DNA of 64,000 nt, taken from positions 1 to 64,000 of the IMG/VR virus record IMGVR_UViG_3300037488_003551; one strand, written 5' to 3'. The notes beneath the pieces are model-generated. The model was not told the DNA's origin. It saw only the letters and a list, made by a program, of their open reading frames with translations, and searched no databases. Within the stretch, counting starts at the first letter, position 1. Each line of letters begins with the position of its first letter. The DNA is from a virus. Shown in pieces: positions 4,535-45,316 of the stretch. A program made the translations under genes and the position numbers.

Positions 4535-6268
4535 ATGACTACGATTTCCGATACGACGTTAATGGCCACGGGTGGATTGGGTCACTCTAACCCATACTTC
4601 ACCTATAGTCAGCTCTTTGCTCCCAAGCGATTGAAGGAACTTTTCAAGATGTGCGAGTACCTGTTTTATAACAGCCCACACATCTTCGCAGCCCTTCGAA
4701 AGTTTGGAGAATATCCTATAACAGAGATTACGTATGATACGGATAATATTCAGTTAAAAGAGAAGCAGAAGAGTCTCCTAGAAAAGGTTGTCCGCGCAAA
4801 AGAATTTCTGTTGAAATCCACGCTGGATAAATATATTTATGGAAACTCCTTCACTTCTATGTACCAACCGTTCGTCCGTTATTTGACTTGTCCAAAGTGC
4901 AAGGCGGCTACGAATATCAAGTTCGTGGACTATTCTTTTACACTGCAAACTTTAACGTTTGCTTTTAAATGCCCCGCCTGCGAGCGTCAAGTAACTGTGG
5001 GTGAAGATAACGTTGAGGACCGGAAGCTGATGCTCACGAAGGACATCAACTTCATTCGCTGGGACCCCAAGTGTATCGACATCGAACACAACGTTTTTAC
5101 AGGAGAATCCGTTTACTATTATTCGATTCCTTCGGATACGGCAGCGCAGGTTCGACGCGGGCAGAAGCATATCATCGACACGACGCCCTGGGGTTTTCTG
5201 CAGGCTATCAAAGAGCACAAGCCTTTTAAGTTCGCCCCCGAGGCCCTCTTCCACATGAAATTTTGTGCGCCGGCCGGTGTGAACCCGCAATGGGGCTTGC
5301 CGCCCCTCCTCCCAGCGCTCGACCGCTTTTTCTATACGCAGGTGTTGCGTAAAGCGAATGAGGCTATTGCGCTCGAGCATCTCGTGCCCTTCCGTATCGT
5401 GTCCCCCGCGGCGACGTCGAGTAGCGGAGACCCCATCCAGTCTATCAACCTCGCCCGGTGGATAGACAACATGAAGAAGAACGAGCAGGACTGGCGCAAC
5501 GACCCGCTGCACATCATGTACGCGCCCATCCCCGTGGCTGTCTCGCAGTTGAATGGGCAAGGACGAGCTCTTCTCACCCTCGGAGAAGTCCAAGAGGCAG
5601 AGAAGTCCCTCGTGGCTGCCCTTGGAATTCCGCTCGAGTTCCTCTATGGCGGACTCACGGGTCAGGGCATGAGCGCGACCTTGCGCATGATTGAGAACCA
5701 GCTGGCGACGCATGTCAGCGACCTCACGGACCTCCTTCAATGGATGACGGATTCCTGCAGCAAGTTTTTGGGGTGGGAGTCCATTCCGGTGGGACTTATT
5801 CCTTTCCGGATGGTGGACGATAATGAAAAGAAGGGAATGCTTTTTCAGCTCTGGCAAGCGGGACTTCAGGGAATGGGACCTCAGACAATTTCGACGACAA
5901 CGATGGCCGAAATCAACGACATCGATGTGCAAAAAGAGTATGGAAGAATCAAAGAAGAGACGTTGCAAAATGCGCGTCGGACGCAAGAACTGCAGCGTGA
6001 GATGCAGAAGATTCAAAATACGATGGCCCAGCAGATTCAGCAGGAGGCCGGCGCCGGAGCTCCACAAGGCTATGACCAGCAGCAGGTCATTGCGAACGCT
6101 GACAATTTGGCACAGCAGTTTTCACAGATGGACCCCTCGACGAGAAAGAGCCAGCTTCACCAGCTTCAGATGGAAGACCTCGTAATGTACTCGGTGGTCA
6201 TTCAACGCCTTGAGCAACAACAGACCGTGGCGCGGCAGCAAGCAACCGTGCAACAGGGGGCAATGTGA
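4535..6268 (+). CDS. Portal protein with Zn-ribbon insertion and Q-rich C-terminus
   Basis: D.YIYGNSF, FIRWDP..I.I, FHMK, WGLPPLL and SLVAALGIPLEFLYGG resemble large-phage portals; first gene of the head operon; CPKC..CPAC insert. Confidence 0.75.
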   Translation: MTTISDTTLMATGGLGHSNPYFTYSQLFAPKRLKELFKMCEYLFYNSPHIFAALRKFGEYPITEITYDTDNIQLKEKQKSLLEKVVRAKEFLLKSTLDKYIYGNSFTSMYQPFVRYLTCPKCKAATNIKFVDYSFTLQTLTFAFKCPACERQVTVGEDNVEDRKLMLTKDINFIRWDPKCIDIEHNVFTGESVYYYSIPSDTAAQVRRGQKHIIDTTPWGFLQAIKEHKPFKFAPEALFHMKFCAPAGVNPQWGLPPLLPALDRFFYTQVLRKANEAIALEHLVPFRIVSPAATSSSGDPIQSINLARWIDNMKKNEQDWRNDPLHIMYAPIPVAVSQLNGQGRALLTLGEVQEAEKSLVAALGIPLEFLYGGLTGQGMSATLRMIENQLATHVSDLTDLLQWMTDSCSKFLGWESIPVGLIPFRMVDDNEKKGMLFQLWQAGLQGMGPQTISTTTMAEINDIDVQKEYGRIKEETLQNARRTQELQREMQKIQNTMAQQIQQEAGAGAPQGYDQQQVIANADNLAQQFSQMDPSTRKSQLHQLQMEDLVMYSVVIQRLEQQQTVARQQATVQQGAM

Positions 6269-15590: not shown

Positions 15591-16088
15591 ATGTACCAGT
15601 ACGGATATAATGCGGCCCTGCATCAGTTGGGTTTAGAGAAGAACGCAGCTTTCTTTCCAGGAGCGGCAGCTCGATTCATGCCGAAACTCAAATCTTTTGG
15701 TAAGGCTGTCGGCACAAATCTTTTTGGACAACCTAAAAAGTTCGTAGGTGAGTTGCGGTCTGGAACGGCATTTGGTAAAGACAGTCTACTTGCAGAAGGA
15801 TTTAAAGCGCCAAAACTCTGGCAAAAAGCGCTCATGTATGGTCTTCCCGCGGCTTCAGCTGTTCAGACTTTGCGGAGTGATGACCCAGATAAAGCAGGGT
15901 CTATTGGAGGTTTAATCGGTGGTACAGCTTTAAGTACAGCTGCTTTTGGACCTTTTGGTATGCTAGGAGCGATACCTACAAGTATGGCAGGAGAATTTAT
16001 CGGTAAGCGTCTCGTACACGGTACGCAGCGTATATTGGGAGTTGGAAATCAACAGGCTCCGCAATATACTTCTTTGCAACAACGGTAA
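15591..16088 (+). CDS. Glycine-zipper putative internal-head protein with class A leader
   Basis: MYQYGYNAALHQLGLEKNAA; GGLIGG hydrophobic segment. Confidence 0.6.
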   Translation: MYQYGYNAALHQLGLEKNAAFFPGAAARFMPKLKSFGKAVGTNLFGQPKKFVGELRSGTAFGKDSLLAEGFKAPKLWQKALMYGLPAASAVQTLRSDDPDKAGSIGGLIGGTALSTAAFGPFGMLGAIPTSMAGEFIGKRLVHGTQRILGVGNQQAPQYTSLQQR

Positions 16089-16138
16089 CTATATGAGCCG
16101 TGGCACGTTTACCCGGCTACTGAAAGTGAGAAGACTGA

Positions 16139-16591
16139 ATGAATCCTGAACTCATTAAACAGGCGTACGCGTACGGTGCCGCGGTAGCTCTTCAGGAACT
16201 CGGCTTTAGTGCGCAACAAGCACAGGCAGGCGGAGTAAAGCTTGCTTCTGAGAAGATGGCTGAAGGCGAAGAAATGAAAGATCCTGCTCTGTGGCCTGCG
16301 GCTATGTTTGGACCTACGGGTGCAGCGATTGCTGCGCCTGAAGGCAAGAGGATGAGCGCCTTTGGACGTACACTAGGAGGTCAAACTCTTGGTATGCTTG
16401 GGGGCGGCGCTGTTGGTGGTGGTCTGGGTGCTGGTGTCGGTGCTCTAGCGGGACTTCTTAGCCGTGGAAAATTTAGACCAGGGCAAGGTGCTGCTCTTGG
16501 TGGATTGGGTGGTGGATATCTCGGTATGGGTGGCGGCGGTATGTACGGTGCGGCAAAGGGATATCAGAGCGCCCTAGACAAAGAGGAATAA
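16139..16591 (+). CDS. Glycine-zipper putative internal-head protein
   Basis: KQAYAYGAAVALQELG..KLASEKMA; long GxxxG arrays. Confidence 0.6.
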   Translation: MNPELIKQAYAYGAAVALQELGFSAQQAQAGGVKLASEKMAEGEEMKDPALWPAAMFGPTGAAIAAPEGKRMSAFGRTLGGQTLGMLGGGAVGGGLGAGVGALAGLLSRGKFRPGQGAALGGLGGGYLGMGGGGMYGAAKGYQSALDKEE

Positions 16592-16656
16592 AGAAGCGGT
16601 CTCGCTGGCGGTTTGATGTCGGGCGAGTGATTTATAAACACAAGGAGTTATGAAAA

Positions 16657-17532
16657 ATGGGTCTGTTCAAACAAGCACACGTCCGGGGAATCGCGCACGA
16701 ACTCATGAGAAGCGGCATCTTGACTTTCCCGTCGGAGAAGATGGCGGAAGATGTTGCCGACGAGGTCGCGGACAATTTCACGGATGAAGAGATTCCTGAG
16801 GAGTCTCCAGAAGATGGTCTGTCGGAAGAACAAGCTGCGTCCATTCTTGACCAGCTCGCCGCGGTGGCAGATGCCATTTCCGAGAAGACAGGTGGCGCTC
16901 GAGACCTCGGCGTGAACAAGCTCGCAGCTTCCGTTTCTTTGGAAGACGCGGCCTATGCGCATGCTGTCGCTCTCGTGAAGCGCGCGATGGAAGAGGGCAC
17001 GACCAATCCCGGTGAAGGGTCTGTGACTCCCGAGCTGACCGGCGCTGAGGCGCAGGTTGACGCGGTGAACAATCCGTCTTCGGCGGTTGTTGTTCCGCAG
17101 GGCTCTTCGGCCATCGACACCACCCCCGGTATCGTGGGACATGCCGAGCCGGCCGCGCAGCAACCTGGCACCAGCGCTTCGCCTGCTCCCGATTCCATGG
17201 CAGACGTCAAGGCCGCTTCCGAGCTGCTCCGCGTTCTGAAGAAGCTGTCGGAGGATGGAACTCTTCCCTCCGAGGGTGGTCGTATGGACCTGAACACCAA
17301 CTCGAACATCACGACTCCCGTGGTGGCTCAGGGTACGACCAACTCCACGACCCCGACTGAGCCCGTTCCGCAGAAGCCCCATCCAGCAACAGCGGAAGCT
17401 GGCCTGAATACGACCGGCAGCGCACCGGCTGACGTCGCGAAGGTCGCCGCGTTTCTGCAAACGCCAGAGGGTGTTGCGTTTTACCGGCGCTTCCAGGCCC
17501 AAAACAAGGTGGCTGCGGTAGTCAATCGCTAG
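16657..17532 (+). CDS. Acidic putative scaffold/internal head protein with multiple K-x-A sites
   Basis: KQA, KMA, KLA, KRA, KAA, KVA x2; GC3-rich codon usage like the capsid genes. Confidence 0.55.
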   Translation: MGLFKQAHVRGIAHELMRSGILTFPSEKMAEDVADEVADNFTDEEIPEESPEDGLSEEQAASILDQLAAVADAISEKTGGARDLGVNKLAASVSLEDAAYAHAVALVKRAMEEGTTNPGEGSVTPELTGAEAQVDAVNNPSSAVVVPQGSSAIDTTPGIVGHAEPAAQQPGTSASPAPDSMADVKAASELLRVLKKLSEDGTLPSEGGRMDLNTNSNITTPVVAQGTTNSTTPTEPVPQKPHPATAEAGLNTTGSAPADVAKVAAFLQTPEGVAFYRRFQAQNKVAAVVNR

Positions 17533-17614
17533 CCCTGGCTCTCCGCTCCTTTCCTCAATCGTAAAAAGAACGTACAATTCAAACGTTAACGTCTCGAAAA
17601 GGGAGTGCCAATCT

Positions 17615-20092
17615 ATGCCAACTATGTCCATGTCTCCGGAAGTTCAAGCGTATGGCCAACTGCCGTCGACCGAACAAGCCGCGGAGATGTTCAAACAAAG
17701 ATTTTCGGAGATGGCCTATAACGTAATGATGGCGAAGTTTCCTGAACTCGCTGCACAAGTCGTGACGTTTAAGCTCATCGAGACGGACGCAGAGAGTGGC
17801 AAAGGCGTAGGCGCTTTTGTTTTGCTTCTGGAAGATAAGACTATCTATATCCCTGTGGTGATGGTGGATAGTCAGCTCAAGCCTTTTGATATGTTCTATT
17901 TTAAAGACCTCAATATTTTCCTACCCCTTTCGAATGAGTGGTTGGATGAGGTCTCTAAATCAGCGCTGTCGAATTTAGGTGAGCCTGCCAAGCTCCCGCA
18001 AGGCGTCTCCCGAGACATGAGCATCCGGGACATTATTGTTCCGCCTATTATGCCCGAGGGGCGCATCGGACTCGCCTCGGATATGTCCGAGATGTTTAAG
18101 GCCGCGAGTTATAACCCGAAGCCGCGTTTTCTCGAGTTCGTGAAGAACGCGTCGCATGTAGTTCTAGACGGTCTTCGTTTGACGTTCGAACGTAATCCGA
18201 GTTTCGGCCAAAAGATTGCTCAGTACTACGGGAAGAAAGCACTTACGGAAGCTTTTCAGACTGGATATGCGCGTACGGTAAAGACAGCAGCAGAAAATAA
18301 GAAGCCGGTCGTTCGCGTATTCAATCTCGAAACGTACCAGAACGCACTCCCTGAATTGAAAAGGGAATGCGGTTTGAAAATCGCGTCGGACCTTTTCGGC
18401 GAGATCGCGATGAACGGTGTCGGTACAATTGATACGCGACCGGTGGTGAAAAACAAGGTCGTAAAGGTTGAGTCTCCTGTGTGCCTCTCTCCTGCCACGG
18501 AGACTGGATTTTATAACCTCTATTTCCCGGACAAGACGAAGAAGCTCTGTCTCGTGGCAGCAACCGTTCCGGACGGTGACTACCTGGTAATGTTCGCTGA
18601 TGGGAGCAAAGCTTGGACCGTTTACAAAAATGACGCCAAGACGCTGATTGGTGAGCCTGAACTAGATGATAGCGTTATCAAAGCTACGGCCATTTATAAA
18701 GCTCTCGAAGGAGGCTCCAATAATAAGCCGACGATGAATAAGCACAACGTTGCTTTGTACGTTTCAAAACAGGGAAAACTCCAAGCTTGCGGGCCTAAGT
18801 ACATCTCTAGAGTCACGGATAACGGTGACGGTACGACCACGCTAGATAGCGGTCATATCGATTCGGATAATATACGCGGACGTATCATGACTTCTTCGGG
18901 TAGCATGAGCGGCTCTACGACCTTTTATCCGAAGAGCACTTCTTGGTTTTCAGTTCCAGACCCCTGGGAAAATAAACTGAAACCTATCGATGACCCGAAC
19001 ATGATTACGCGCTGGATTGACCAGCACCTTGCAGATAAGACTGACGAGGCGCCTATCAATGTGAAGAAAGCAGGTCTGGCTCAGTGGTGGGTGGAAGGAA
19101 TTCCGACCGCGGTTTATTTGGAGGCCGCGCTCGAGAAGGTCGCCACACGCTACGACCTCTCGCTCAATGATGCGTCCCGAGTTTTGGACGATGCGACAAA
19201 GAATGGGACGTGTCGCTTGCGCCTTATAAAGAGAGCGCAGGGCGAAGAGATGATGCAGCAGGAAGCTGCTCCTCCACAAGACCCAGCGCTGCAGCAGCAA
19301 GGTATGGACCCGGCGATGATGCAGCAGCAGGGTATGGACCCGAGCATGATGGGTATGGACCCGAGCATGATGGGGATGATGCCGCCTCAGCCCCCACAAC
19401 TTTCACCAACCGACCTGGCGATTGCGGAAACAGTTCAAGGTCTGCAGCAGGAGAACCAACTCCGTATGCAGCAGATTCAAGACCAGATGGCTCAGCAGCA
19501 GCAAGCTATGCAGATGCAGATGGAGTCCAACGAGAAGCTCATCGGTGTGCTGACCCAAATTCAGCAACGCGCGAGTGCTATTGGACAGGCGACAGGTGGG
19601 ATAGTTCCTCCCGAAGCCATGCAATCCCCGCTCGCTGCCGGCCAAATGTTGGCGCCAATACCTCCTCCGCAACCCGAGCCTCCGCCGATGCCCGTCATGC
19701 AAGAAGAAGGTCCGGCCTCCGCGGAGATGGTCGCATCTCAAATCCATCCAGAGCTCGCCGAGCAAGCGGCAGATTTTCAAGATGCGGGAATGTTCGACAC
19801 CTCAGTCTTGGCAGTGATGGCAGCTGCTCCGCTCCTCCGGGATATCGTTAGCACCTATATTCCCAATCTGGAAAAAGCGCTCGATAATATCGGGCGTATT
19901 CAGCTGACTTTGTGGATGCGCGAAGCAGAGACCAAGTCTGCCATCGGAAACGATGCGTTCGTTCTCCTCGAAGACAAGCTGCGTAACGTGTTCAAGAACT
20001 TAGGAGAAATCGTTCTCCAGGTAAACCGCAACGCGCTGGATACCGAAGCAGGTGCGATGCAATCTCAGAGGATGTTGGGCGACCAACAGTAA
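17615..20092 (+). CDS. Large putative head/core protein with Q/M/P-rich low-complexity region
   Basis: 825 aa; KAAS, KTAA, KIAS, KRAQ sites; GMDPSMM repeats; TACAATT upstream at 17573. Confidence 0.55.
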   Translation: MPTMSMSPEVQAYGQLPSTEQAAEMFKQRFSEMAYNVMMAKFPELAAQVVTFKLIETDAESGKGVGAFVLLLEDKTIYIPVVMVDSQLKPFDMFYFKDLNIFLPLSNEWLDEVSKSALSNLGEPAKLPQGVSRDMSIRDIIVPPIMPEGRIGLASDMSEMFKAASYNPKPRFLEFVKNASHVVLDGLRLTFERNPSFGQKIAQYYGKKALTEAFQTGYARTVKTAAENKKPVVRVFNLETYQNALPELKRECGLKIASDLFGEIAMNGVGTIDTRPVVKNKVVKVESPVCLSPATETGFYNLYFPDKTKKLCLVAATVPDGDYLVMFADGSKAWTVYKNDAKTLIGEPELDDSVIKATAIYKALEGGSNNKPTMNKHNVALYVSKQGKLQACGPKYISRVTDNGDGTTTLDSGHIDSDNIRGRIMTSSGSMSGSTTFYPKSTSWFSVPDPWENKLKPIDDPNMITRWIDQHLADKTDEAPINVKKAGLAQWWVEGIPTAVYLEAALEKVATRYDLSLNDASRVLDDATKNGTCRLRLIKRAQGEEMMQQEAAPPQDPALQQQGMDPAMMQQQGMDPSMMGMDPSMMGMMPPQPPQLSPTDLAIAETVQGLQQENQLRMQQIQDQMAQQQQAMQMQMESNEKLIGVLTQIQQRASAIGQATGGIVPPEAMQSPLAAGQMLAPIPPPQPEPPPMPVMQEEGPASAEMVASQIHPELAEQAADFQDAGMFDTSVLAVMAAAPLLRDIVSTYIPNLEKALDNIGRIQLTLWMREAETKSAIGNDAFVLLEDKLRNVFKNLGEIVLQVNRNALDTEAGAMQSQRMLGDQQ
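19301..19380 (+). repeat. Coding tandem repeat GGTATGGACCCG(GCG/AGC)ATGATG x3 (GMDPxMM)
   Basis: Seen directly in the sequence. Confidence 0.85.
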
Positions 20093-20096
20093 AAAG

Positions 20097-20801
20097 ATGC
20101 TTGCCCGCATACAGCCGTATTGGCGGTGGTTGAATCTTGAGTACGCGATAAAACGTAAACAGCCACCATCGGACCCATGGCTTGAGCAACTTTACGACCT
20201 GTATTTTGGAAACGTAGAGGGAACCGAGGCGCAGCAAGCAGTCATCGGTCATGTTTTTTCGGAGTTCAAACGCGACGTGATTATGGCCTACTTTTTTGCG
20301 CGATGTTCGATGAACGATATCGAGGAGAGCTTAGAGCTTCCCCCCGAGGTCGTGGAAGGCGTTGCGCGCTTATTTTTTGACCGTACAAAAATTCGTACGA
20401 AGTTAGACCATATTGAATACGCTCGCGAATATATGGACAAGTTTGCTTGTGCGGAAGGAAAGAGTCTCATCTATCTCGGGATGACTGGAGGACCAATTTC
20501 CTTAAAGAATAAATTTTGTCTTGGTTATGAGATGCCTAACATCGATCAAGACTTTGTAGATCACCGGATGTATATGACAGCGGTGTCTTTTGGACTCATG
20601 ACCCGAGGTAATGCTCTGACTTCACGCGAAGGAAAAGAAGCCTTTCACTGGTTCCAGCAGGCTTCTACGATGTCTAATGTGTATCGTAAACTGCAGCAGG
20701 GAGAAGACGACGCCCAGGATGCTATCGTGGCGATTGAGCAGCGAAAGCTTACCCATAAACCTGAGGCGGCTGGTATCGACCGCAACGAAGTTCTTCACTG
20801 A
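20097..20801 (+). CDS. Hypothetical protein of the head operon
   Basis: Fills the gap between neighbours; start placed at ATG 20097. Confidence 0.6.
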   Translation: MLARIQPYWRWLNLEYAIKRKQPPSDPWLEQLYDLYFGNVEGTEAQQAVIGHVFSEFKRDVIMAYFFARCSMNDIEESLELPPEVVEGVARLFFDRTKIRTKLDHIEYAREYMDKFACAEGKSLIYLGMTGGPISLKNKFCLGYEMPNIDQDFVDHRMYMTAVSFGLMTRGNALTSREGKEAFHWFQQASTMSNVYRKLQQGEDDAQDAIVAIEQRKLTHKPEAAGIDRNEVLH

Positions 20802-20815
20802 TAAGGAGTCCAGCT

Positions 20816-21691
20816 ATGTGGATGCGCGATGATTACGAAAAAGCGGCGAGTGTTATTGCCAAGGAATTCGCTGCGGGTAATGGCGCTGTGACCATTAACC
20901 AGCTCGCCACAAAAACTGCTGCCGAGGCTGGATTGAATCCGGATGGGATTCGAACACTGGTGCGCCTTGCGAACGTCAATGCTTTTAATGAGCTCTTTTC
21001 AAAGCAGGCGGGTAAAGAAGACCGCATGTTCGAGTTTGAGACTGGCGACCCCGAGATTGTTATTTCTTCTCTACATTCGGATGCTAAAGTGGCGCACGAG
21101 ATGAACTCTCCCGTCTCTTTGAATAATTACGATATGCTCGCGGACTACTTCGGCGGATTCTCGACGAAGACTGCGGAAGACGAAGAAGAGGATGACGAAG
21201 ACGAGGGCGAGGACGAAGAATGTGAGAAGGACGAGAAGTGCGACGAAGAGAGCAAGGAGCCTGTCCTGAATAAATCCGAAGTTACGATGCTTTACAACCG
21301 AGCTAAAGACAAAGTCTCAGAAGAAAAGAAGGCGTCGGAAATCCGTTGGGGTCTGGCTCTCGAGAAGGCGGCACGCGTAACCAGCGAAGTGGCGGGTCGA
21401 AACGTCCATTTTAACAAGACCGCTTTTTACCGTGACCTCGTCTCTGCCAGTAATGGTTCATGTCTCGATGACGTTAAAGGCCTCCACGCTCTTCTGACAA
21501 AAGAAGAAGGCGTGGACGTTCTTGGTGGAATGAAGGTTGCGGAGGTCGTGGATACTTTTTCACCCAACCTAAAAGGACAGACCGCAGAAATTCTCGGCTA
21601 CCTAGAAGAAGCACGCGAAGCACGCTACAATTGGGACAAGTGCGCTAGCGCCGAGAGGTTCCTCAATGGGATGGAAATCAGTCACAGATAA
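20816..21691 (+). CDS. Putative internal head protein with acidic tract and K-x-A sites
   Basis: AAGGAG SD; KAA, KTA x3, KQA, KVA x2. Confidence 0.6.
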   Translation: MWMRDDYEKAASVIAKEFAAGNGAVTINQLATKTAAEAGLNPDGIRTLVRLANVNAFNELFSKQAGKEDRMFEFETGDPEIVISSLHSDAKVAHEMNSPVSLNNYDMLADYFGGFSTKTAEDEEEDDEDEGEDEECEKDEKCDEESKEPVLNKSEVTMLYNRAKDKVSEEKKASEIRWGLALEKAARVTSEVAGRNVHFNKTAFYRDLVSASNGSCLDDVKGLHALLTKEEGVDVLGGMKVAEVVDTFSPNLKGQTAEILGYLEEAREARYNWDKCASAERFLNGMEISHR

Positions 21692-22373
21692 GTTCGTAAC
21701 CGACCCCGGACCCGCGCTAAAACGTTTTATCGAAACCGTTCAGCGTCATCCGGTAGCTTCTACAATAGGCGCCGGGACTCTTGCAGCAGGTGCAACATCG
21801 TTTGGCCCCAAGGCCAATGAACAGGAGAGTGAGTTCATGAAAAACCGTCTTGGGTCTCCTGACGGAAAATTTGTTTACGCCTCTGAAAAAGTTGCGGCGC
21901 AACTGGAAGAGCTATTTGTGAAAGAGGCGGCACCATCTGCTGCGGCTAACCCTTCCGCGTGGAATTCGGCGTGGCAATCGGGTGTTGAAGGTTTAAGTAA
22001 AGGCGTAGGCGCAGGCGTAGGTGGAGCGGGAGTATTGATTCTCTCTGACCTTCTCCGAAAAGCGGGACGAGGACTCTCTCAAAAACTCGTTTACGATTCT
22101 AAGCGTAAAGAAATGCTCCGCAAGATTCTTTCGATGGACCCTATCGTCAGCGCTTTTGAAGCCCAGAACCCAGGTCTCATGCTCAAGGTTTATGCGTCTA
22201 TGGTTTCTGTTGCGCCCACTCTGAGTCTCGACCAAAATGCAGTGACTTCTTTTCTCCGAGAAGCTGCGCAAACGCATGGCTCGTTGAACTACATGACGAT
22301 TAAGCAATTGGCCGAAACAGAAAAAGCAATCAACGAGTCCAAGGGTACGGACCTCAGCCGCTTGAGACTGTGA
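21666..22373 (+). CDS. Putative internal head protein with hydrophobic Gly-rich segments
   Basis: EKVAA, KEAA; GVGAGVGGAG. Confidence 0.55.
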   Translation: MGWKSVTDKFVTDPGPALKRFIETVQRHPVASTIGAGTLAAGATSFGPKANEQESEFMKNRLGSPDGKFVYASEKVAAQLEELFVKEAAPSAAANPSAWNSAWQSGVEGLSKGVGAGVGGAGVLILSDLLRKAGRGLSQKLVYDSKRKEMLRKILSMDPIVSAFEAQNPGLMLKVYASMVSVAPTLSLDQNAVTSFLREAAQTHGSLNYMTIKQLAETEKAINESKGTDLSRLRL

Positions 22374-22600
22374 GGCAGAACATGACATACGACGAACTCA
22401 GCCAAATGATTCCAGAGTCCGTAAAACTCGCGATGCGCAATGGACAGTTCCATAAGGTAGCCGCGGAAATGAACGGTTGGAAATCCACAGAGCTTCCTGA
22501 AATTCTTGAGAGTTTTGGGACCAAGCTTGCCAGCCGACAAGAGCGCTATCGCGTGATTACGGATGGGCTAAATGCTCTCGAGACTCTGAAGAAGGACTAA
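22370..22600 (+). CDS. Small putative scaffold-like protein
   Basis: KLA, KVA, KLA within 76 aa; coupled ORF. Confidence 0.55.
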   Translation: MRQNMTYDELSQMIPESVKLAMRNGQFHKVAAEMNGWKSTELPEILESFGTKLASRQERYRVITDGLNALETLKKD

Positions 22601-22607
22601 TCCTCAC

Positions 22608-24689
22608 ATGATGAGAAAAATCGTCCACCTCGACCCTTACTTCCCGACTGGTGAGCTCACGATTCAGCCGGTTGTATTGTGGTCGGGGAGTAAGAAGTTT
22701 GTCGAACCCATCACGAAGCATGCAAGTGTTGGGGCAGACTTCTTCAAGACGATTCAGCCGGTACCCGGTCATAGCATCGTTTATGTTCTCGCTGTCAGCG
22801 CTTGGGAGCGTTATGGCGAAAACCGAAATGGTGACGGTTTTCCAGACCAGCCGTATATGGCGCATGCGGGAGGAATTCAAGAAACCGAGACTCTCCAAAA
22901 GCACTACAAATCTTTTGAGTCTGTTGGGAATGTTTTTCTCTCGCACGTTAACACCGACCCCATAAAAGCTGTAGGGCGCGTTATTAAAGCATTCTGGAAT
23001 GACTCGATGAAACGCGTCGAGCTTCTTTTGGATGTGGACAACGCTAAAGCTCCACGTGTGGTTGAGCGAATAGAAGCTGGGGAATATCCTGCGGTTTCGA
23101 TGGGGACGCGCGTTCCCTGGGACGTGTGCTCCCTACCCTCTTGTTTAAATCACGCACCCACCCGTGCCCAGTACTGCGACCACCTGCGTTTTCAAATGCG
23201 GGATGTTGTTAACGGCGTGAAGGTTGCCGCTCTTAATCCGAGCTGCAAATTTTTCGATATTTCTTGGGTGGTGCGGCCGGCAGACCCGAATGCCTATATG
23301 CTCAAGAAGGTTGCTGATGAGGCCTACGAAATCAAATATTCGGGGGCGGCAGCAGGTGAATACTTGGACGAAATGGAAGAGCGTAAGCTCGCGGCGCACA
23401 AGTTAGCGGTAATCGATAAAGTTGTTCAGGGTATTCCAGTCGATGCCAAGTCCGAAAATATCGATCCGATGCACCTACACAACGCCTGTGCAATGCAGCC
23501 GACGGCGATGTCGATGAGTCATGGTCTTCCAGAGCTCTCTGATTCTATCCTCCGGCAGCTGGCCTCGTCCTGCTCTCTTCCAGATATTTTCACGTCTACG
23601 CTTGCGATGGGCATGCCCCTATGCACGCGCGAGGTTGTGAAAATTACGATTTACCGTCAGATGCCTGGCGCCCCAAATATGGACGGAGTCGCGGATGCCG
23701 CGGTCTCCGCGCGTCAGCCTTTGATGGACCTTTTCCAAGAGCATCCGCAGATGTTGGATGCATATGAAGGTGACCTCGACATTGACCAGTGTCATTTGAA
23801 TCCTAAAGTAGCTGAAATCATTGGGACCGGAATGGAAAAACGTTCGGGTATTTATGAGTACTTGAAACGTAAGTACGTTCCTGGAAAGTACCGTGATGAT
23901 GCTACACGACTGACACCCTTTACTGTAACGGACCCGGTATCGGGACAACGTTATGGTACGAATCGACAAGCTGCTATTTTGGCACATGACGAAATCGCTA
24001 AAAAGAATTTACGGAAAGTTCTGGGAGGGGCTGCGGCTCTCGGAGGAGCGTATGGTTTAATTTCTTCTGGGTTGAGAAGTAGAGGATTGTCGAAGTTAAA
24101 TCCTCTAGTTGCAGGCACTCTTGGCGCAGTTGGATTAATGAATATGCCTTCTATGGGGCCGCATTATATGACGGACCAAGGTGTTCCTATTCCTGTCCTG
24201 ACTGAGCTCACCAAAATGAGCGCCGATTCTTCTGGTTTTGCACGTTCTTTAGCGTTACCTCTTTTTGGTACGCTGGGAACGATGGCGCTTTTAGGGATGG
24301 ACCGAAGGCATCGTTTAGCCCAAGGATATGTTCCAGGTAATCCCTACGAGAATGCGCCTCGTCGAGGGATAGATACTCTCAGTACCGCAGCTGCAAATCA
24401 CCCACTTCTTTTTGCAGGATTGGGTACGCTAGGAATGCGCGCTGCAGGGAATACCAGAGCTGCAAAATATCTCGGAGAGAATGTCGCTAAGCCACTTTTT
24501 AATAAAGGGCAAAAGGCTGTCAGTGGTATAGACGAATCCCTTCGAAGATGGGCTCAAAAAACTAGCCAAGAAATAATTGTGGGAGCGTCTATGAAAGCTG
24601 CGTCGGATTCCGTAAGCCTTCCAGTATTAGACATGGACAAAATCGCCGAAAGTCTTGGCGAGATTTTGTTAGGAAACACGGACTTGTGA
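22608..24689 (+). CDS. Prohead maturation protease (N-terminal) with glycine-zipper C-terminal extension
   Basis: NRNGDGFP, FLSHVN (His), AVSMGT (Ser), CSLPSC..CDH, FFDISWV.RPAD..A; lies upstream of the capsid genes. Confidence 0.8.
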   Translation: MMRKIVHLDPYFPTGELTIQPVVLWSGSKKFVEPITKHASVGADFFKTIQPVPGHSIVYVLAVSAWERYGENRNGDGFPDQPYMAHAGGIQETETLQKHYKSFESVGNVFLSHVNTDPIKAVGRVIKAFWNDSMKRVELLLDVDNAKAPRVVERIEAGEYPAVSMGTRVPWDVCSLPSCLNHAPTRAQYCDHLRFQMRDVVNGVKVAALNPSCKFFDISWVVRPADPNAYMLKKVADEAYEIKYSGAAAGEYLDEMEERKLAAHKLAVIDKVVQGIPVDAKSENIDPMHLHNACAMQPTAMSMSHGLPELSDSILRQLASSCSLPDIFTSTLAMGMPLCTREVVKITIYRQMPGAPNMDGVADAAVSARQPLMDLFQEHPQMLDAYEGDLDIDQCHLNPKVAEIIGTGMEKRSGIYEYLKRKYVPGKYRDDATRLTPFTVTDPVSGQRYGTNRQAAILAHDEIAKKNLRKVLGGAAALGGAYGLISSGLRSRGLSKLNPLVAGTLGAVGLMNMPSMGPHYMTDQGVPIPVLTELTKMSADSSGFARSLALPLFGTLGTMALLGMDRRHRLAQGYVPGNPYENAPRRGIDTLSTAAANHPLLFAGLGTLGMRAAGNTRAAKYLGENVAKPLFNKGQKAVSGIDESLRRWAQKTSQEIIVGASMKAASDSVSLPVLDMDKIAESLGEILLGNTDL

Positions 24690-24742
24690 ATTGAGAACGA
24701 GCACCATATCATTGGTGCGTAAAAGGAAAGAGGTCATGCACC

Positions 24743-25279
24743 ATGGAATTCGCTAAGATGCTCGCCGGTTTTAACGCTCCCGCAGCTGCACAAACTAAAA
24801 CGGCTAGCGTGGACAACACGAAACAGCAGATTGCTAGCGCTGTGGAAGCGACTAAGGTTGCTTCGGCAGCACAATCAACTGATGCTGTGGAGGCTCTTAT
24901 GAAGACAGCGGCTACGTTGGCTGAAAATGAGAAGACAGCTGAGCTGGTACACGCGCACATGAGCGGTCGCGCTTTTGCGCAAGGTGCTATGGAAGTGTTC
25001 GCGGTTGCTGACGCTGCAGCTCAGAAGGTAGCGTCGGAGACTGCTCCTTCGCCCAATGCGTACTACCAAGCAAAGATGGCTGCTGACCAGGAAGCCATGG
25101 TCAAGGCTGCTGCTGAGCAGGGTTATCACGACACGATGACCAAAGCTGCCGCTGAGTACAACCAAGGATACGAAGCAGCGGTACAGGATGCCGTGAAGGT
25201 CGCTGCCAACGAGTTCTACAAGGGTGCGCAAGAGGCCGCGATTATCATCCAGGCCGCTCGCAGCCAAAGGAACGGCTGA
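24743..25279 (+). CDS. Ala-rich putative scaffolding protein
   Basis: About nine K-x-A sites; GY repeats (QGYHD, QGYEA). Confidence 0.6.
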   Translation: MEFAKMLAGFNAPAAAQTKTASVDNTKQQIASAVEATKVASAAQSTDAVEALMKTAATLAENEKTAELVHAHMSGRAFAQGAMEVFAVADAAAQKVASETAPSPNAYYQAKMAADQEAMVKAAAEQGYHDTMTKAAAEYNQGYEAAVQDAVKVAANEFYKGAQEAAIIIQAARSQRNG

Positions 25280-25286
25280 GTGAAAC

Positions 25287-25502
25287 ATGGCTAGACCTCT
25301 TCCGAGTGTGGATGCTGTTGTTGCCCGCGTCAAAGCGCTGGCACAGGAAGAAGCGGTGAAGACCGCCTCTGCCGCGGCGCCGATGCTTACTGACGATGTG
25401 GCTCAAAGCCTGCAGAAGTTGGCGAGCGACCTTCGGGCAGAGGCTTCGGTACGCGTGTCTGTTCAGGACGTTCTGAACTTTGCACAGGCGGTGCACCGAT
25501 GA
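25287..25502 (+). CDS. Small putative scaffold-like protein
   Basis: KTAS, KLAS; lies in the operon. Confidence 0.55.
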   Translation: MARPLPSVDAVVARVKALAQEEAVKTASAAAPMLTDDVAQSLQKLASDLRAEASVRVSVQDVLNFAQAVHR

Positions 25503-25657
25503 CATCTCCCGTGTCAGCTCAACTCCGTACCTTGGCGCAAGAACTCCGTAAGGAAGCGTCAGTCCGTGAAGAGACCAAGCTACTCAAAGTGGCGCAGGTT
25601 CTCTCCGCGGCTCGAGCCTTAGACGAATTTCGTGCGCTTCTAAATGGAAGGCAGTAA
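25499..25657 (+). CDS. Small helical protein (52 aa, MTSPVSAQLRTLAQELRKEAS...), not in ORF track
   Basis: ATGA overlap with the previous stop; ends 2 nt before the next ATG; KEA and KVA sites. Confidence 0.6.
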   Translation: MTSPVSAQLRTLAQELRKEASVREETKLLKVAQVLSAARALDEFRALLNGRQ

Positions 25658-25659
25658 AA

Positions 25660-25992
25660 ATGCTGGACCTAGTGAAAGTAGCTGAAGTCCTCGAAGCTGC
25701 CGCCAGTTATATCGAGGCAACCGAGACCAAGCAAGCCGAAGCTGTCAACGCGGTTCGGGGTGCTGAGGCCTCAAAATTGGCCAGCCGTATCCGAGATGCC
25801 GTCGGAGAAAATATCTCCGCGGACCTTCTCGGAAAGCTGGCCGCGACTAACCCAGAAGTGACCGAGCTCCTCGCGCGCCTCGCCGGGGGAGACCGCGTCG
25901 ATTCCCTGGGCGGTCCTGACACAACGAAAACAGCTTCCACCTCTTCGCTGCCCGAGGGTGAGGCTGCTTTTGTAAACTTCCTTCTGAGCTGA
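25660..25992 (+). CDS. Putative scaffold protein immediately upstream of the capsid genes
   Basis: KVA, KQA, KLA x2, KTA; C-terminal FVNFLLS. Confidence 0.55.
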   Translation: MLDLVKVAEVLEAAASYIEATETKQAEAVNAVRGAEASKLASRIRDAVGENISADLLGKLAATNPEVTELLARLAGGDRVDSLGGPDTTKTASTSSLPEGEAAFVNFLLS

Positions 25993-26546: not shown

Positions 26547-27467
26547 ATGTCGTACAATGTTGAAACCTCTACTCATTCCGCGCAGTTCCTGAACAAGTCG
26601 TTCCTCTCCAAGGTTGAGGGCGGCCATGTGAAGGAAGCGGTCGAAGCCAGCTCGCTGTTCATTCGTGAGCGTCTTCGTCAGGCGGCAGCTGTCCGTGAAG
26701 TCATCGTCCCCCAAAGCGTGACCGAAGAGAACATCGACCGTGACGAGAGCACCGACCAGCCGAAGATCATCATCGACAAGGAGCCGAACTCAACGGCTTC
26801 TTTCGTGCAGTTCCAAGGCACCGGTCGCCGCACGTGGTTCAAGGGTCCCCGTTACTCCGTCCGCTTTGGTAAGGTCGAGTCACAGCGATTCACCAAGACC
26901 AAGGCGGAGCTCATGACCTACCGCTCCGACATTCGCAAGATTCTGTCGGACAACTCGGTCATGGATATGGCGGACGAAGAGGATCGCAAGTTCTACGAGC
27001 TCGTCGCCGCGATCATCGCCGCGAACCCGAGCGTACAGCGCACCACGGGCGCTTTCCAGAGCGGCACGTTCAAGGTTGCTTGCCAGGCGATGCTGACCGG
27101 TACGCGCAAGCGTCCTATCGGCAAGCTCCTGCTGAGCAAAGAGCGCTACATGGACGCGCTCGACCTGCCGGCGACCTCCGTCGGTGACGAGATTGCCAAG
27201 CGTCATTTTGACGAGGGCATCGAGTCCTCGCAGAAGCTCTGGGGTCTCCCCGTTGTGACGCACGTCAAGTCGGATATCTATCCGACCGACAAGGGTTGGA
27301 TTTTCTCTCCAACCACGCCGAACAACTTCCTGGGTAACTTCTTCACCCTGCAAGATGCCACTCTGTTCATCAAGCAGGAAGCAGACGTCATCTCCTTCTG
27401 GACCTACGAGTACGTTGGCCTCGGAATCGCCAACACTCTGTCCATGCAGGAAATCGTTTTCAGCTGA
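26547..27467 (+). CDS. Major capsid protein (HK97-fold, putative)
   Basis: FIRERLRQ...REVI, IIDKEP, ELMTYRSDIRKIL...D...EEDRKF, LWGLPVV, YEYVGLGIAN; strongest codon bias in the window; position after protease and scaffolds. Confidence 0.75.
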   Translation: MSYNVETSTHSAQFLNKSFLSKVEGGHVKEAVEASSLFIRERLRQAAAVREVIVPQSVTEENIDRDESTDQPKIIIDKEPNSTASFVQFQGTGRRTWFKGPRYSVRFGKVESQRFTKTKAELMTYRSDIRKILSDNSVMDMADEEDRKFYELVAAIIAANPSVQRTTGAFQSGTFKVACQAMLTGTRKRPIGKLLLSKERYMDALDLPATSVGDEIAKRHFDEGIESSQKLWGLPVVTHVKSDIYPTDKGWIFSPTTPNNFLGNFFTLQDATLFIKQEADVISFWTYEYVGLGIANTLSMQEIVFS

Positions 27468-39042: not shown

Positions 39043-39807
39043 ATGAAAAAGACAGCTCACCAAATTGCTAGTCACGTATTAGCAAAAGTTGCCGCTATTA
39101 CACCGGAAGAAATCGCAGCCGGATTGGCTGGCAATAAGATGCGCGATATCCCCCAAGAAGAGATTGACAGCCTAACGCAAGAGTACGGCGATAAGGCTTA
39201 TAAAGAACGCGCAAGCGCTCCTTGGTGGGGTGGTGGACTTGGTGGGGCTCTCGGTGGATTGGGAGGATTAGCGTTAAGCCAGGGTCGTCCTGCAGGTGGA
39301 CTCATTGGCTTAGGGATTGGCGGGGGACTGGGAGCTCTTCTCGGGCATGGAGTACGCACGGGTGCACGGTCTCAAGCGCGTGACCTGGGATCGACAGTCG
39401 GAGGAATTGCACAGTCAGGTCGTATTCCTTACGACTTTCCTGGACGCGTCCGAACAGATGACCTTATACCGTACGCTAAGGGTATTCAAGGAACTCCTGA
39501 GACCATGAATTTTCAGGACGAACAAGCCATCAGGGACCGGCTGACAAACCGGCTCATGCTTATGCGCGGAGCAGAAGGCGCAATTACTGGGGGTCTAACG
39601 AGCGCTCTGGCTAACCGAGATCGTGAAGACGCATCAGGGGATGCCGTACTCAGCGCCGCGCTTCAAGGTGGGATGGGAACATTGCGCGGACGCTCGGAAG
39701 CGCGTGAGATGGCGCGCAAAGTCCTAGACCTAAAATCTCGTGGGTATGGGACGCTGTCTGATCGTTACTACAACGACGCCCTTGACCCAGAAATCCTGGG
39801 CTATTAA
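39043..39807 (+). CDS. Glycine-zipper cargo protein with class B leader
   Basis: MKKTAHQIASHVLAKVAAITPEEIA; GGLGGALGGLGG. Confidence 0.65.
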   Translation: MKKTAHQIASHVLAKVAAITPEEIAAGLAGNKMRDIPQEEIDSLTQEYGDKAYKERASAPWWGGGLGGALGGLGGLALSQGRPAGGLIGLGIGGGLGALLGHGVRTGARSQARDLGSTVGGIAQSGRIPYDFPGRVRTDDLIPYAKGIQGTPETMNFQDEQAIRDRLTNRLMLMRGAEGAITGGLTSALANRDREDASGDAVLSAALQGGMGTLRGRSEAREMARKVLDLKSRGYGTLSDRYYNDALDPEILGY

Positions 39808-42409: not shown

Positions 42410-43408
42410 ATGTACAAAACTGCCGAACAGATCAGTTGGAATATCCTACTAAAAGCGGCTGCGAGTGAAGGTGGTAACCCTGAACTGTGGCGCAAGATGG
42501 TAGACCGTATAGCCAAAAGTAAGGGAATGCCAGCGCCTACTGACGCCGAGTTTGCAGAGATGTTTCCTCCTGATTTCGCGACTTCCAGTAAAACAATGGA
42601 AGACGCCATCCAGGGGTCCAAGTGGTTTAACAAGGCAAATGCAGGTCCATCTGCGTCCTCTCCGAGTTCTAATCCGTACGCGGATTACAATCCACGTTCG
42701 AGTTCAAGTTCGAGACAATACTCGTCTCCATTTGATGACTTTTTTTCAAGGTATAACCAGCAGGCAAGACAAAATTCGAATTGGTGGGATAAGACGTGGG
42801 ACGCAGAGAGTCAAGCACGAGCCGAAGCACGTAAAGCTGAGCAGCAAGCGAGTGACGCGCAATGGGAAGAAAGAAGACAGCGGCAAACTCGCGAGTCCGC
42901 AGACCGGGAAAAAGCATACCAAGAAAAACAAAAAGGTTATAGCCGCAGTACCTCGGCATCGACCGAGTCAAATAAGTACTATGACCAAGCTCGCGGTATG
43001 AAGAACCGTGCCGCCGCATATACGGCAGGGCTCCCAACTGCATTGGGTATGAGCGGATTAGCCATTGGAGCTGCGACTGAGGACAAAGATAAACGTAATG
43101 TAATTATGGGAGGTACAGGCGCAGGCGCAGGGGCCTCTATGGGATATGGAAGTGTCCTCGAAGAGAACGCTCGGCGGTTTAGGAATGCTATAAAACCTAT
43201 TCCTTTTTCTGTTGATGAAGGCTTTCAAGTTATGAAGCCTTACAATAAAATGAAAGCTACTCCCCATACAGTTATGGGTGGACTTCTTGGATTAGGTTTG
43301 GGTCTGGGTGGGTCTCACTTGATACAAAAAGCCTTCTATGACCAAAAGAAGACCCCTATGCGAAAAGCCGCTTCTGAAATTGCGGCATCGATTCTTAGAA
43401 ATTATTGA
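42410..43408 (+). CDS. Glycine-zipper cargo protein with class B motif at both ends
   Basis: MYKTAEQISWNILLKAAA...; C-terminal MRKAASEIAASIL. Confidence 0.65.
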   Translation: MYKTAEQISWNILLKAAASEGGNPELWRKMVDRIAKSKGMPAPTDAEFAEMFPPDFATSSKTMEDAIQGSKWFNKANAGPSASSPSSNPYADYNPRSSSSSRQYSSPFDDFFSRYNQQARQNSNWWDKTWDAESQARAEARKAEQQASDAQWEERRQRQTRESADREKAYQEKQKGYSRSTSASTESNKYYDQARGMKNRAAAYTAGLPTALGMSGLAIGAATEDKDKRNVIMGGTGAGAGASMGYGSVLEENARRFRNAIKPIPFSVDEGFQVMKPYNKMKATPHTVMGGLLGLGLGLGGSHLIQKAFYDQKKTPMRKAASEIAASILRNY

Positions 43409-44823
43409 GTCGTATCTCTCTGTAGAAGTCGCATTAATTGATTATTCAAATCTTTTTTGTTCTTCGACATATCTGCTAATACATCTTCTACTCCAATTGG
43501 GTCCTTTTTTGTTATTCTCTGCCAAAGGTTGGCTTGTGGATGCGTGACGTATTGCTGGACAAGAACGTTACGCTTGTCCTCAGGTAAATCTGTGTGTGAA
43601 CCATGCCGAATCGCACGTCCAATAACCTGGTCGAGTTTTTCTTCATTCCAGTGAGGCTCTAAAACTTGGACCAGCCGCGTCCCTTTTAAGTCCAGACCTT
43701 CGCCACCTGCGGATGAGAGGAGCAAGGCCCGCAATTTCCCAGCGTTGTAATCGTCGATGGCAGCCTGGCGCTCTCCTTTTGGTACTGACCCCGTAAAAAG
43801 TTTGCTAGGAATTCCCTGCGATTCAAGTTGCTGCTGGTATTCGGATAGGTTGTTTAGATAATTGGAATATACGATGGCTTTGGAAGTAGGGTCAGACTTA
43901 ATACGCTTAGCTAGTTCTTGAACCGCGTACATTGTTTTGGGAGAGGCTTCGCCACGAACATACTTATTAGTGGAACCTGATATCTGTCTAGCCTGCGATT
44001 CAAATTTATTAAACGCTGAAAGTTCTTTCCCAGCAGGCAAAGCGCCATGCTCCAACTTTTTACGCAGACTTCGTGGAAGTGTTCCCCATGCGGCAGCGTG
44101 TAATCGCGTTTGCAGATCCGACATAGGAACGCGTACACGCTCGTCCATACGCGTTGGGAAATCCCCACTCGTATTGTCTTGATAATCTACCCACTTTTGG
44201 AGGACGCCCTTGAGCTCATCCGTATTTTTCAATACAGGCTTCATAGGCTTTCCTCGAAGGCGGTACCACCAACTTGGATTTCTTGGGGGTTTACTGATAT
44301 ATTTTTCGTTGAAAGTAGCTCCCACAGGAAGAACAGATTTACCTGCTGCGATGTTGACAAGCGGAGCTATATCGGAAGGCCTGTTATATACAGGCGTTGC
44401 AGTCAAAAGCATCCGTTTAGCCGCGGGATATTGCGCGAGAAGTTTATTAAGACCTGTAGATGTCTCGCGAGCTTTATGCGCTTCGTCTACAACTAAAAGG
44501 TCAGAGGGGATTGTTTCACCTGATAGCGCATCTCTCTGCTGACTTCGTACCTGGATATTATTAGGACCTTTGAGATGCTTGGCAATTTCCTTTTGGTAGT
44601 TGGGAACCAAAGATGCGGGAGCTAAGACGGTCGTATTTCCACTTTGTCCCGCAGCTGCCGCGAGGGAACTTAACGTTTTTCCTGTGCCTAACCCGTGTGC
44701 TACAACCAGCCCCGGCTGTTTTTTAAGACGGTCTACTACGCGCTGTTGATGCGGGAGTAACTGCGTTAAAACTTCCGCTGCAGTTTTATTGAATATTCCA
44801 GAAGGAATGGTCTTCGGTTTCAT
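43402..44823 (-). CDS. Second SNF2-family helicase, with N-terminal KTAA site
   Basis: HGLGTGKT, DEAH, LTATP, GGEGLDL, QVIGRAIRHGSH; leaderless start after TAAAATT. Confidence 0.9.
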   Translation of the reverse strand: MKPKTIPSGIFNKTAAEVLTQLLPHQQRVVDRLKKQPGLVVAHGLGTGKTLSSLAAAAGQSGNTTVLAPASLVPNYQKEIAKHLKGPNNIQVRSQQRDALSGETIPSDLLVVDEAHKARETSTGLNKLLAQYPAAKRMLLTATPVYNRPSDIAPLVNIAAGKSVLPVGATFNEKYISKPPRNPSWWYRLRGKPMKPVLKNTDELKGVLQKWVDYQDNTSGDFPTRMDERVRVPMSDLQTRLHAAAWGTLPRSLRKKLEHGALPAGKELSAFNKFESQARQISGSTNKYVRGEASPKTMYAVQELAKRIKSDPTSKAIVYSNYLNNLSEYQQQLESQGIPSKLFTGSVPKGERQAAIDDYNAGKLRALLLSSAGGEGLDLKGTRLVQVLEPHWNEEKLDQVIGRAIRHGSHTDLPEDKRNVLVQQYVTHPQANLWQRITKKDPIGVEDVLADMSKNKKDLNNQLMRLLQRDTTQ

Positions 44824-45157: not shown

Positions 45158-45316
45158 ATGTCTATACTGCTCACCATTCTTCTCATCCTACTCATTCTCA
45201 GTATTTTTGGTGGGGCGTTGAGTGGTGGCCACATCAGCTGGTCTCCGATTGGAATTATTCTTTTAATCTTCCTCATTTTAATCCTCACTGGGAACGCGGG
45301 GCATCTCCGACTATGA
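45158..45316 (+). CDS. Small two-TM membrane protein (DUF3309-like)
   Basis: MSILLTILLILLILSIFGGAL...SPIGIILLIFLILILTG; AGGAGGT SD. Confidence 0.6.
   Translation: MSILLTILLILLILSIFGGALSGGHISWSPIGIILLIFLILILTGNAGHLRL

Follow-up and report, generated by a model that had tools for sequence, protein, structure and literature searches.

The head operon and its Lys-x-Ala motif

The window considered here, 64,000 nucleotides long, is the first 64 kb of a phage genome assembled as a single contig of 172,892 bases (IMG/VR record IMGVR_UViG_3300037488_003551). Its plus-strand genes between positions 4535 and 27467 are syntenic with those of the cultured Salmonella phage Arash, the gene order running from the portal (gene 4535, 30% identical to Arash gp204) through a prohead protease (open reading frame, ORF, 22608; gp222) to the major capsid protein (gene 26547; gp226). 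The fused RNA polymerase β/β′-N chain of the phage corresponds to Arash gp206 and the β′-C chain to gp216. The present analysis concerns 13 ORFs, named here by their start positions, all on the plus strand between positions 15591 and 25992 (the head operon), and the tripeptide K-x-A (Lys, any residue, Ala) that recurs in their products, probably as the recognition code of the prohead protease.

The 13 proteins contain 66 K-x-A sites, about 2.6-fold the 25.2 expected from shuffles within each protein (z = 9.0; none of 2000 shuffles reached 66). The over-representation that an earlier, sequence-only reading of this DNA had noticed by eye thus persists after correction for composition. When the shuffling is confined to windows of 10, 20, or 30 residues, by which the local composition is kept, z amounts to 8.8–9.6. 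K..A pairs at gaps of 1 and 3–7 are at expectation in the 13 ORFs, and A..K pairs show no enrichment. Among approximately 1,600 residue-pair patterns at gaps 1–4, K-x-A ranks first (z = 8.2; next z = 4.5), and K-x-x-S ranks third. The enrichment is limited to Lys at position 1 and Ala at position 3, R-x-A, K-x-S, K-x-G, and K-x-T being at or below expectation both in the head operon and in nine relatives. The DNA pattern AAR-NNN-GCN is found 66 times in frame versus 12 and 4 times in the other two frames, and the signal therefore lies at the protein level.

Outside the head operon, over the entire 173-kb genome, the ratio of observed to expected K-x-A is 0.76–1.03. The density is 1.95 per 100 residues in the head operon versus 0.28–0.62 in other regions, in agreement with the earlier impression that the accessory ORFs are sparser, while 3,312 head-operon residues contain 22 copies of the stricter pattern K-[VTLAMIQ]-A-[SA], versus 27 copies in 51,702 residues elsewhere. 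A deficit of K-x-A in the RNA polymerase (9 sites versus 14.7 expected) was also considered; it is not significant and has no counterpart in Arash, and was therefore dropped as evidence.

Ten of the 13 ORFs lie above their own expectation, as listed below. The counts quoted earlier for ORFs 22370 and 25660 are exact, and that for ORF 24743 is nearly right, with ten sites instead of about nine.

15591..16088, + strand: 165-aa ORF; 1 K-x-A (1.6 expected); N-terminal leader similar to those of ORFs 16139 and 16657, with E-K-N-A at its end
16139..16591, + strand: 150-aa Gly/Ala-rich ORF; 3 K-x-A (1.4 expected); leader followed by KLAS and EKMAE
16657..17532, + strand: 291-aa ORF; 7 K-x-A (1.7 expected); sites 5 and 88 present in 4 of 4 divergent orthologs
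17615..20092, + strand: 825-aa head protein, partial homolog of Arash gp218 ("structural protein"); 11 K-x-A (4.8 expected)
20052..20801, + strand: 249-aa ORF; 2 K-x-A (1.2 expected), not enriched
20816..21691, + strand: 291-aa ORF with an acidic run; 10 K-x-A (2.4 expected; Poisson p = 2e-4)
21666..22373, + strand: 235-aa ORF; 2 K-x-A (2.2 expected overall)
22370..22600, + strand: 76-aa ORF; 3 K-x-A (0.4 expected); site 19 present in 5 of 5 orthologs
22608..24689, + strand: prohead protease precursor, 693 aa; 8 K-x-A (3.9 expected)
24743..25279, + strand: 178-aa protein, 29% Ala; 10 K-x-A (3.4 expected)
25287..25502, + strand: 71-aa ORF; 2 K-x-A (0.7 expected), KTAS and KLAS
25499..25657, + strand: 52-aa ORF; 2 K-x-A (0.4 expected)
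25660..25992, + strand: 110-aa ORF; 5 K-x-A (0.9 expected); K90-T-A-S present in 5 of 5 orthologs

The sites are distributed unevenly within some of these proteins. In the 825-aa protein, 7 of the 11 cluster within residues 115–255. In ORF 24743, which is predicted to be a scaffold or core protein cut into short peptides, the spacing is irregular, and six of the sites are found in 5 of 5 orthologs at an overall identity of 26–35%. In ORF 21666, K86-E-A88 is retained in 6 of 6 orthologs, the identity of the flanks there being just 0.12.

The residues around the motif are also nonrandom. The position before Lys favors Val (13 versus 4.4 expected) and Thr, the middle position favors Val, Thr, and Leu (the β-branched Val or Thr in 24 of the 66 sites), and the position after Ala is Ser in 19 cases versus 4.2 expected (p = 2e-8), Ala in 17, and Glu in 9, the next position favoring Glu. 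The excess of Ser after Ala recurs in five relatives, namely Arash (10 versus 2.4), the Vibrio phage D69 (16 versus 4.0), and three metagenomic relatives. Written out with its flanks, the consensus reads [V/T/E]-K-[V/T/L]-A, then S, A, or E, and often E after that.

Motifs of the known systems do not show such behavior in the head operon. The Glu-type motifs L-x-E (26 observed/20 expected), I-x-E (12/8.4), S-x-E (16/15), and G-x-E (13/17) are not enriched there, which upholds the contrast with Glu specificity drawn earlier, and neither is the herpes-type V/L/I-x-A. A-x-E shows a mild excess (42 versus 30 expected), because Glu is favored two positions after the motif Ala (P2′). As a positive control, the identical pair scan was run on T4 gp67, gp68, gp21, and gp22. 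It returns I-x-E at rank 1 and L-x-E at rank 2, with 16 [LI]-x-E versus 5.7 expected in the scaffold gp22, and the scan thus picks up a cleavage code that is proven. The K-x-A signal in the present phage exceeds that of the T4 control.

Two further features of the head-operon proteins can be mentioned here. A run of about 25 Asp/Glu residues (residues ~118–146, positions 21165–21250) lies in the middle of ORF 20816, directly after a KTAE site. A similar leader, KQA/YQY..G..A..L..LG, opens the three consecutive ORFs 15591, 16139, and 16657 (positions 15591–15660, 16139–16270, and 16657–16750) and is followed by E-K-x-A (EKNA, EKMAE, and EKMAE, respectively); the resemblance suggests that the leaders are paralogous removable N-terminal modules.

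The prohead protease and the capsid protein

ORF 22608 consists of a domain with the gp21/assemblin fold, at approximately residues 40–225, and a helical C-terminal extension of about 450 residues. In the AlphaFold 2 (AF2) model, which was built on 65 orthologs, residues 40–225 have predicted local distance difference test (pLDDT) values of 70–90. The best fold match is T4 gp21 (5jbl_C; Z = 9.7, root-mean-square deviation 3.4 over 136 residues, VIA-align), followed by herpesvirus proteases (Z = 5.5–7.6). The protein also matches PHROG 18299, "head maturation protease" (E = 1e-6), and its residues 37–235 match large proteins of cluster C mycobacteriophages and Gordonia phages in their N-terminal domains; one of these proteins carries the annotation capsid maturation protease. 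A sequence-level link of ORF 22608 to solved structures was not found. In the hhalign profile alignment with T4 gp21, which is weak (E = 0.04), AGEYPAVS164M is paired with AGWIPGVS140S of T4, and NRNGDGFP with NRNKRLYP. Ser140 is the nucleophile of T4 gp21. The key positions of the precursor are the following.

22716..22724, + strand: K37-H-A39, then S40, at the upstream edge of the protease domain; in 64 of 65 orthologs (Ser40 in 63); predicted N-terminal self-processing site
22944..22946, + strand: His113, invariant in the 65 orthologs; candidate catalytic His
23097..23099, + strand: Ser164 in PAVSMG, invariant in the 65 orthologs and opposite Ser140 of T4 gp21 (PGVSS); predicted nucleophile
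23307..23315, + strand: K234-V235-A236, in 65 of 65 orthologs, in the disordered linker 226–246 that directly follows the protease domain; predicted site of C-terminal self-release
24639..24647, + strand: K678-I-A680, in 54 of 65 orthologs; a cut here would free the last 13 residues of the precursor

Segments with pLDDT below 50 include residues 36–38, 226–246, and 662–670, and K37-H-A39, K234-V-A236, and K663-A-A665 are located in these three segments. The first two sites flank the protease domain in disordered linkers. For the protease, this bears out the proposal that K-x-A sites sit at domain boundaries, and the LKKVA sequence pointed out in the earlier reading is indeed found just after the domain. 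The sites at K260 and K265 (region 260–267) and at K678 are likewise kept, in 54–64 of the 65 orthologs.

Inside the protease domain there is an invariant Cys/His cluster (C174, C179, C190, and H192; residues 174–192, positions 23127–23183), and weak zinc-finger Pfam matches are obtained for 38 of the 65 orthologs (best E = 7e-4, below the gathering score). To our knowledge, T4 gp21 has no such Cys/His site. About one-eighth of the protease orthologs listed are 1057–1095 aa long (P0010, P0016, P0036, P0065, P0066, P0078–P0080, P0086, P0093, P0096, P0097, P0101, P0103, P0104, and P0111), and all but one of these have intein, LAGLIDADG, or Hint Pfam domains; inteins are therefore found repeatedly inside this protease gene.

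The capsid gene is located outside the interval 15591–25992, yet it is part of the same system.

26547..27467, + strand: 306-aa major capsid protein; Arash gp226, which bears the annotation "major capsid protein", is 38% identical
26631..26639, + strand: K29-E30-A31 in the capsid protein; its Lys and Ala both invariant in 50 homologs

The site is kept in 8 of 8 divergent orthologs, including those of Arash and D69, and is predicted to be the point at which a 31-residue capsid propeptide is removed.

The motif in relatives and beyond the head operon

Relatives were collected by tblastn and a scan of viral contigs, giving Arash, the Vibrio phages D69, D181, and D148, and 15 IMG/VR loci, 13 of which were used. 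Their proteases are 32–96% identical to ORF 22608, with Arash gp222 showing 40% identity over residues 35–280. K-x-A is the rank-1 pair pattern in 15 of 15 syntenic head operons (12 distinct sequences, window included; z = 4.3–10.1), and it is the top pattern also in the cultured phages Arash and D69. The substrate proteins are just 25–45% identical between divergent lineages versus ~68% for the capsid protein, and many of the K-x-A sites appear as conserved islands in the ortholog alignments. Some sites are missing from the same alignment column, but a K-x-A is then found within a few residues. The conservation of the motif Lys is 0.54 versus 0.37 for other Lys residues (p = 0.002), and that of the motif Ala is 0.59 versus 0.40 for other Ala residues (p = 1e-4).

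The Arash protease homolog gp222 (L001:19920-21395) is labeled merely "structural protein" in the Arash paper, which makes no mention of a protease or of processing (PMC10585845), and the model cultured phage is thus without a protease annotation. In Arash virions, the RNA polymerase β chain is the top protein by spectral count (PMC10585845).

In the actinophages, the signal is modest. K-x-A occurs 25 times versus 13.2 expected in mycobacteriophage I3 (rank 7) and, weakly, 16 times versus 9.8 in Gordonia phage Stormageddon (rank 35), where R-x-A occurs 26 times versus 16.3. The rule may reach cluster C mycobacteriophages, in which K-H-A likewise stands ahead of the homologous protease domain; such an extension to actinophages is tentative. 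The homologous protease domain in these phages heads a protein of 1089–1408 aa (I3 gene 103, L018:8920-13146; Stormageddon gene 13, L020:8914-12183). In I3, K-H-A is found before the domain, in the same place as in ORF 22608, and the capsid proteins of both phages have K-L-A-[H/S] at residues 45–50.

Within the present genome, extended K-x-A-[S/A/E] motifs also occur near the N-termini of proteins encoded outside the head operon. Of the 14 such motifs within the first 70 residues, 8 start at positions 13–18 (binomial p = 8e-6). The eight proteins concerned are otherwise unrelated.

39043-39807 and 42410-43408, + strand: extended motif starting within residues 13–18; both proteins also with K-T-A at residues 3–5
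43402-44823 and 45311-47161, − strand: extended motif starting within residues 13–18
genome positions 93258, 148369 (−), 157943 (−), and 170875 (−): extended motif starting within residues 13–18

The N-terminal segment of ~15 residues in these proteins looks like a cleavable leader. Further along the genome, outside the window, a 339-aa ORF (genome positions 156126-157145, + strand) has 13 K-x-A sites versus 3.0 expected (Poisson p = 1.5e-5). No other ORF of the genome shows so strong an excess. The 339-aa product is probably a further core or cargo protein of the head, with its gene at a great distance from the head operon.

Proposed cleavage specificity, alternatives, and implications

On the basis of these results, we propose, with a probability of roughly 0.7, that K-x-A is the recognition code of the phage's own gp21/assemblin-fold prohead protease and that the enzyme cuts after the Ala. 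The support for cleavage is good, albeit indirect. It comes from the motif statistics, the conservation, the fold, and the positions of the sites, from which we infer cleavage itself, the after-Ala cut, and which of the sites are used. Every computational test that was run (spacing, frame, conservation, fold, and T4 control) supports the assignment of K-x-A as a prohead-protease motif that the sequence-only reading had put forward. It is most likely that the K-x-A rule represents a new specificity of the known prohead protease system.

The assignment of the scissile bond is by analogy. The T4 prohead protease recognizes I/L-x-E and cuts after the Glu (PMC12991175, PMC5694885), and the motifs of phiKZ (S/A/G-x-E) and SPN3US (A-x-E) are both cut after the Glu as well (PMC5694885, PMC10052503). 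For the SPN3US enzyme gp245, the preferred residues are Val at P4 and Ser at P1′ (PMC10052503). The Val before Lys and the Ser after Ala coincide with these two preferences, and this is the main argument for placing the cut of the present enzyme after Ala.

In the proposed mechanism, proteolysis would be carried out by the N-terminal domain of ORF 22608, in which Ser164 is the predicted nucleophile and His113 a candidate for the general base. Inside the assembled prohead the enzyme would cut after Ala, with Lys at P3, Ala at P1, and Ser or Ala at P1′. The protease would free itself from its flanking segments at residues 37–39 and 234–236, and the 31-residue N-terminal propeptide of the capsid protein would be removed at K29-E30-A31. 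The Ala-rich scaffold and core proteins (24743, 25287, 25499, 25660, 20816, 16657, and the N-terminal part of 17615) would be chopped into short peptides that leave the shell, and N-terminal leaders of ~15 residues would be clipped from some proteins whose genes lie elsewhere. The release of cargo modules, suggested in the earlier reading, may be a further consequence, and it is the site positions that point to it.

A number of observations weigh against this proposal. In the literature searched, cleavage products are described neither for this phage nor for a relative, and the Arash virion proteome paper and its supplement (trypsin, coverage only) contain no peptide-level or N-terminal data and name no raw-data deposit; the coverage values give no information on processing. 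Trypsin cleaves at the Lys of the motif itself, by which such ends would escape a fully tryptic search. ORFs 15591, 20052, and 21666 are not enriched in K-x-A, so that the earlier statement that almost every ORF has several sites goes slightly too far. Nor is the motif clearly avoided in the RNA polymerase, an enzyme that Arash packages. Regarding the enzyme, no Pfam protease family is matched by ORF 22608 or any of the 65 orthologs, the alignment with T4 gp21 is weak, as mentioned above, and in it His113 is offset by three residues from His85 of T4. For the third catalytic residue, an Asp in T4 and a His in herpesviruses, the candidates are the invariant D172 and H192, which is conserved to at least 90% but may instead bind a metal together with C174, C179, and C190. 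The conserved sites at 260 and 265 lie inside a predicted helix. Finally, the model of the capsid protein is poor (mean pLDDT 57.5) and therefore says little about the location of residue 31 relative to the fold.

The motif could also belong to the protease and be cut after the Lys, with Ala and Ser at P2′ and P3′, in the manner of HK97 gp4, which cuts its capsid protein after a Lys. Lys is indeed the strictest position alongside Ala, and Arg is not a substitute. However, the closest folds are those of T4 gp21 and then the herpes proteases, whose P3-x-P1 motifs are cut after the third residue, and the Val before Lys and Ser after Ala fit the P4 and P1′ preferences of SPN3US gp245 in the after-Ala register only. 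In addition, the residue following Lys is most often Val or Thr, which we judge to be an unlikely P1′, and we consider a cut after Lys to be improbable. The same low likelihood is assigned to a nonproteolytic role of K-x-A, as a linear motif for docking of core, scaffold, or cargo to the shell, to the portal, or to each other, or for Lys modification. Statistics and conservation alone cannot separate binding from cutting, and several sites lie in predicted helices. Such a role would leave aside that the sites bracket the catalytic domain of the protease in disordered linkers, that the capsid site is at a short, fixed distance from the N-terminus, that sites recur at residues 13–18 of unrelated proteins, and that the layout and flank preferences equal those of proven protease motifs. 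The ten sites in the 178-aa Ala-rich protein likewise fit the destruction of a scaffold, as with T4 gp22.

If the sites are cut, the enzyme could be other than ORF 22608, namely a host protease or a second phage protease. This is very unlikely, considering that the motif travels with this protease clade across phages of Salmonella, Vibrio, and unknown sediment bacteria and that the protease has invariant sites at its own domain borders. Pfam and PHROG scans of 17 ORFs, with 25287, 25499, and 25660 outside the scan, named no second head protease, although no dedicated search was made. Hardly any weight is left to the least probable explanation, in which Ala-rich amphipathic helices, local composition, repeated paralogous modules, or a signal at the DNA level would produce the enrichment incidentally. 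The substrates do have a high Ala content and are helical, and three ORFs share a paralogous leader, but there is no excess at i+1, i+3, i+4, and i+7, z stays at about 9 after shuffling in windows of 10–30 residues, the DNA pattern is frame-specific, and the spacing in ORF 24743 is irregular. The excess also persists in orthologs at 25–45% identity, with the sites conserved above their flanks. A composition or helix artifact is largely refuted, given the outcome of the test of individual gaps, of the shuffling within windows, and of the comparison of reading frames.

The proposed cleavage after Ala by ORF 22608 can be compared with known systems. T4 gp21 (PDB 5jbl; substrates gp22, gp67, gp68, gp23, gp24, and internal proteins) has the same fold, and its serine motif aligns with that of ORF 22608 (PGVS-S and PAVS-M, respectively). 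As in T4, the gene lies among portal, scaffold-like, and capsid genes, and a P3-x-P1 motif is over-represented in core and scaffold proteins. Self-processing, removal of a capsid propeptide, and multisite destruction of the scaffold are also common to T4 (PMC5694885) and the present phage, for which they are predictions. The motif, on the other hand, is K-x-A rather than I/L-x-E, Pfam-level membership is lacking, and ORF 22608 has the Cys/His cluster and the 450-residue helical extension. The putative ~15-residue leaders are reminiscent of the capsid-targeting sequence (CTS) of T4 internal proteins and Alt, a short leader at the N-terminus with the protease motif at its end (PMC5694885), although the sequence code differs and the leader role is a prediction from sequence.

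The phiKZ gp175 and SPN3US gp245 enzymes (MEROPS S80) are those of phages that package a multisubunit RNA polymerase in the virion and process many head proteins, as is predicted here. Autoprocessing of the protease C-terminus and several motif copies in propeptides are shared in the same predicted sense (PMC10052503, PMC5694885), together with the gp245 preferences at P4 and P1′. Their motif, however, is (S/A/G)-x-E or A-x-E in place of K-x-A, and the genomes are unrelated beyond fold-level similarity.

Herpesvirus assemblin (MEROPS S21), an enzyme with a His-Ser-His triad, cuts Ala-Ser bonds in (V/L/I)-x-A followed by S. The assemblins (varicella-zoster virus, 1vzv; pseudorabies virus pUL26N, 4v08; human cytomegalovirus; herpes simplex virus; and Kaposi's sarcoma-associated herpesvirus) are the second-best fold matches, and the predicted P1 Ala and P1′ Ser are shared with them. 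Unlike in assemblin, P3 is strictly Lys in the present system, which is that of a bacterial virus without sequence similarity to these enzymes.

The clade that carries this protease counts at least 718 protease clusters and at least 844 capsid-protein clusters, among them the cultured Arash and D69. The odds are, in our estimation, slightly better than even that in this large and mostly uncultured clade a T4-fold prohead protease has switched from cutting after Glu to Lys-x-Ala followed by Ser or Ala, that is, to the P1/P1′ chemistry of assemblin, and that the same code acts across the whole genome as a "load, then cut" label for capsid maturation, self-release of the enzyme, destruction of the scaffold, and trimming of ~15-residue leaders from head-borne proteins. 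In the literature, we found no published description of a K-x-A code, nor of mature ends in Bxz1/I3-type phages. All T4/phiKZ-type prohead proteases studied so far cut after Glu, and Lys-x-Ala would, if true, be the first other specificity among phages with this fold. Its echo of the Ala-Ser bond of assemblin would then bear on the shared ancestry of these enzymes.

For hundreds of unannotated phages, the code would provide a sequence-only rule that predicts the mature ends of proteins, helps to separate scaffold from cargo, and nominates head-carried proteins, including those of the virion RNA polymerase operon. The rule is directly testable in two cultured phages. In some bacterial CBASS (cyclic-oligonucleotide-based antiphage signaling system) sensors, the trigger is the cutting of decoy loops by a prohead protease (PMC12991175), and knowledge of the motif would make it possible to look for host sensors adapted to phages of this clade.

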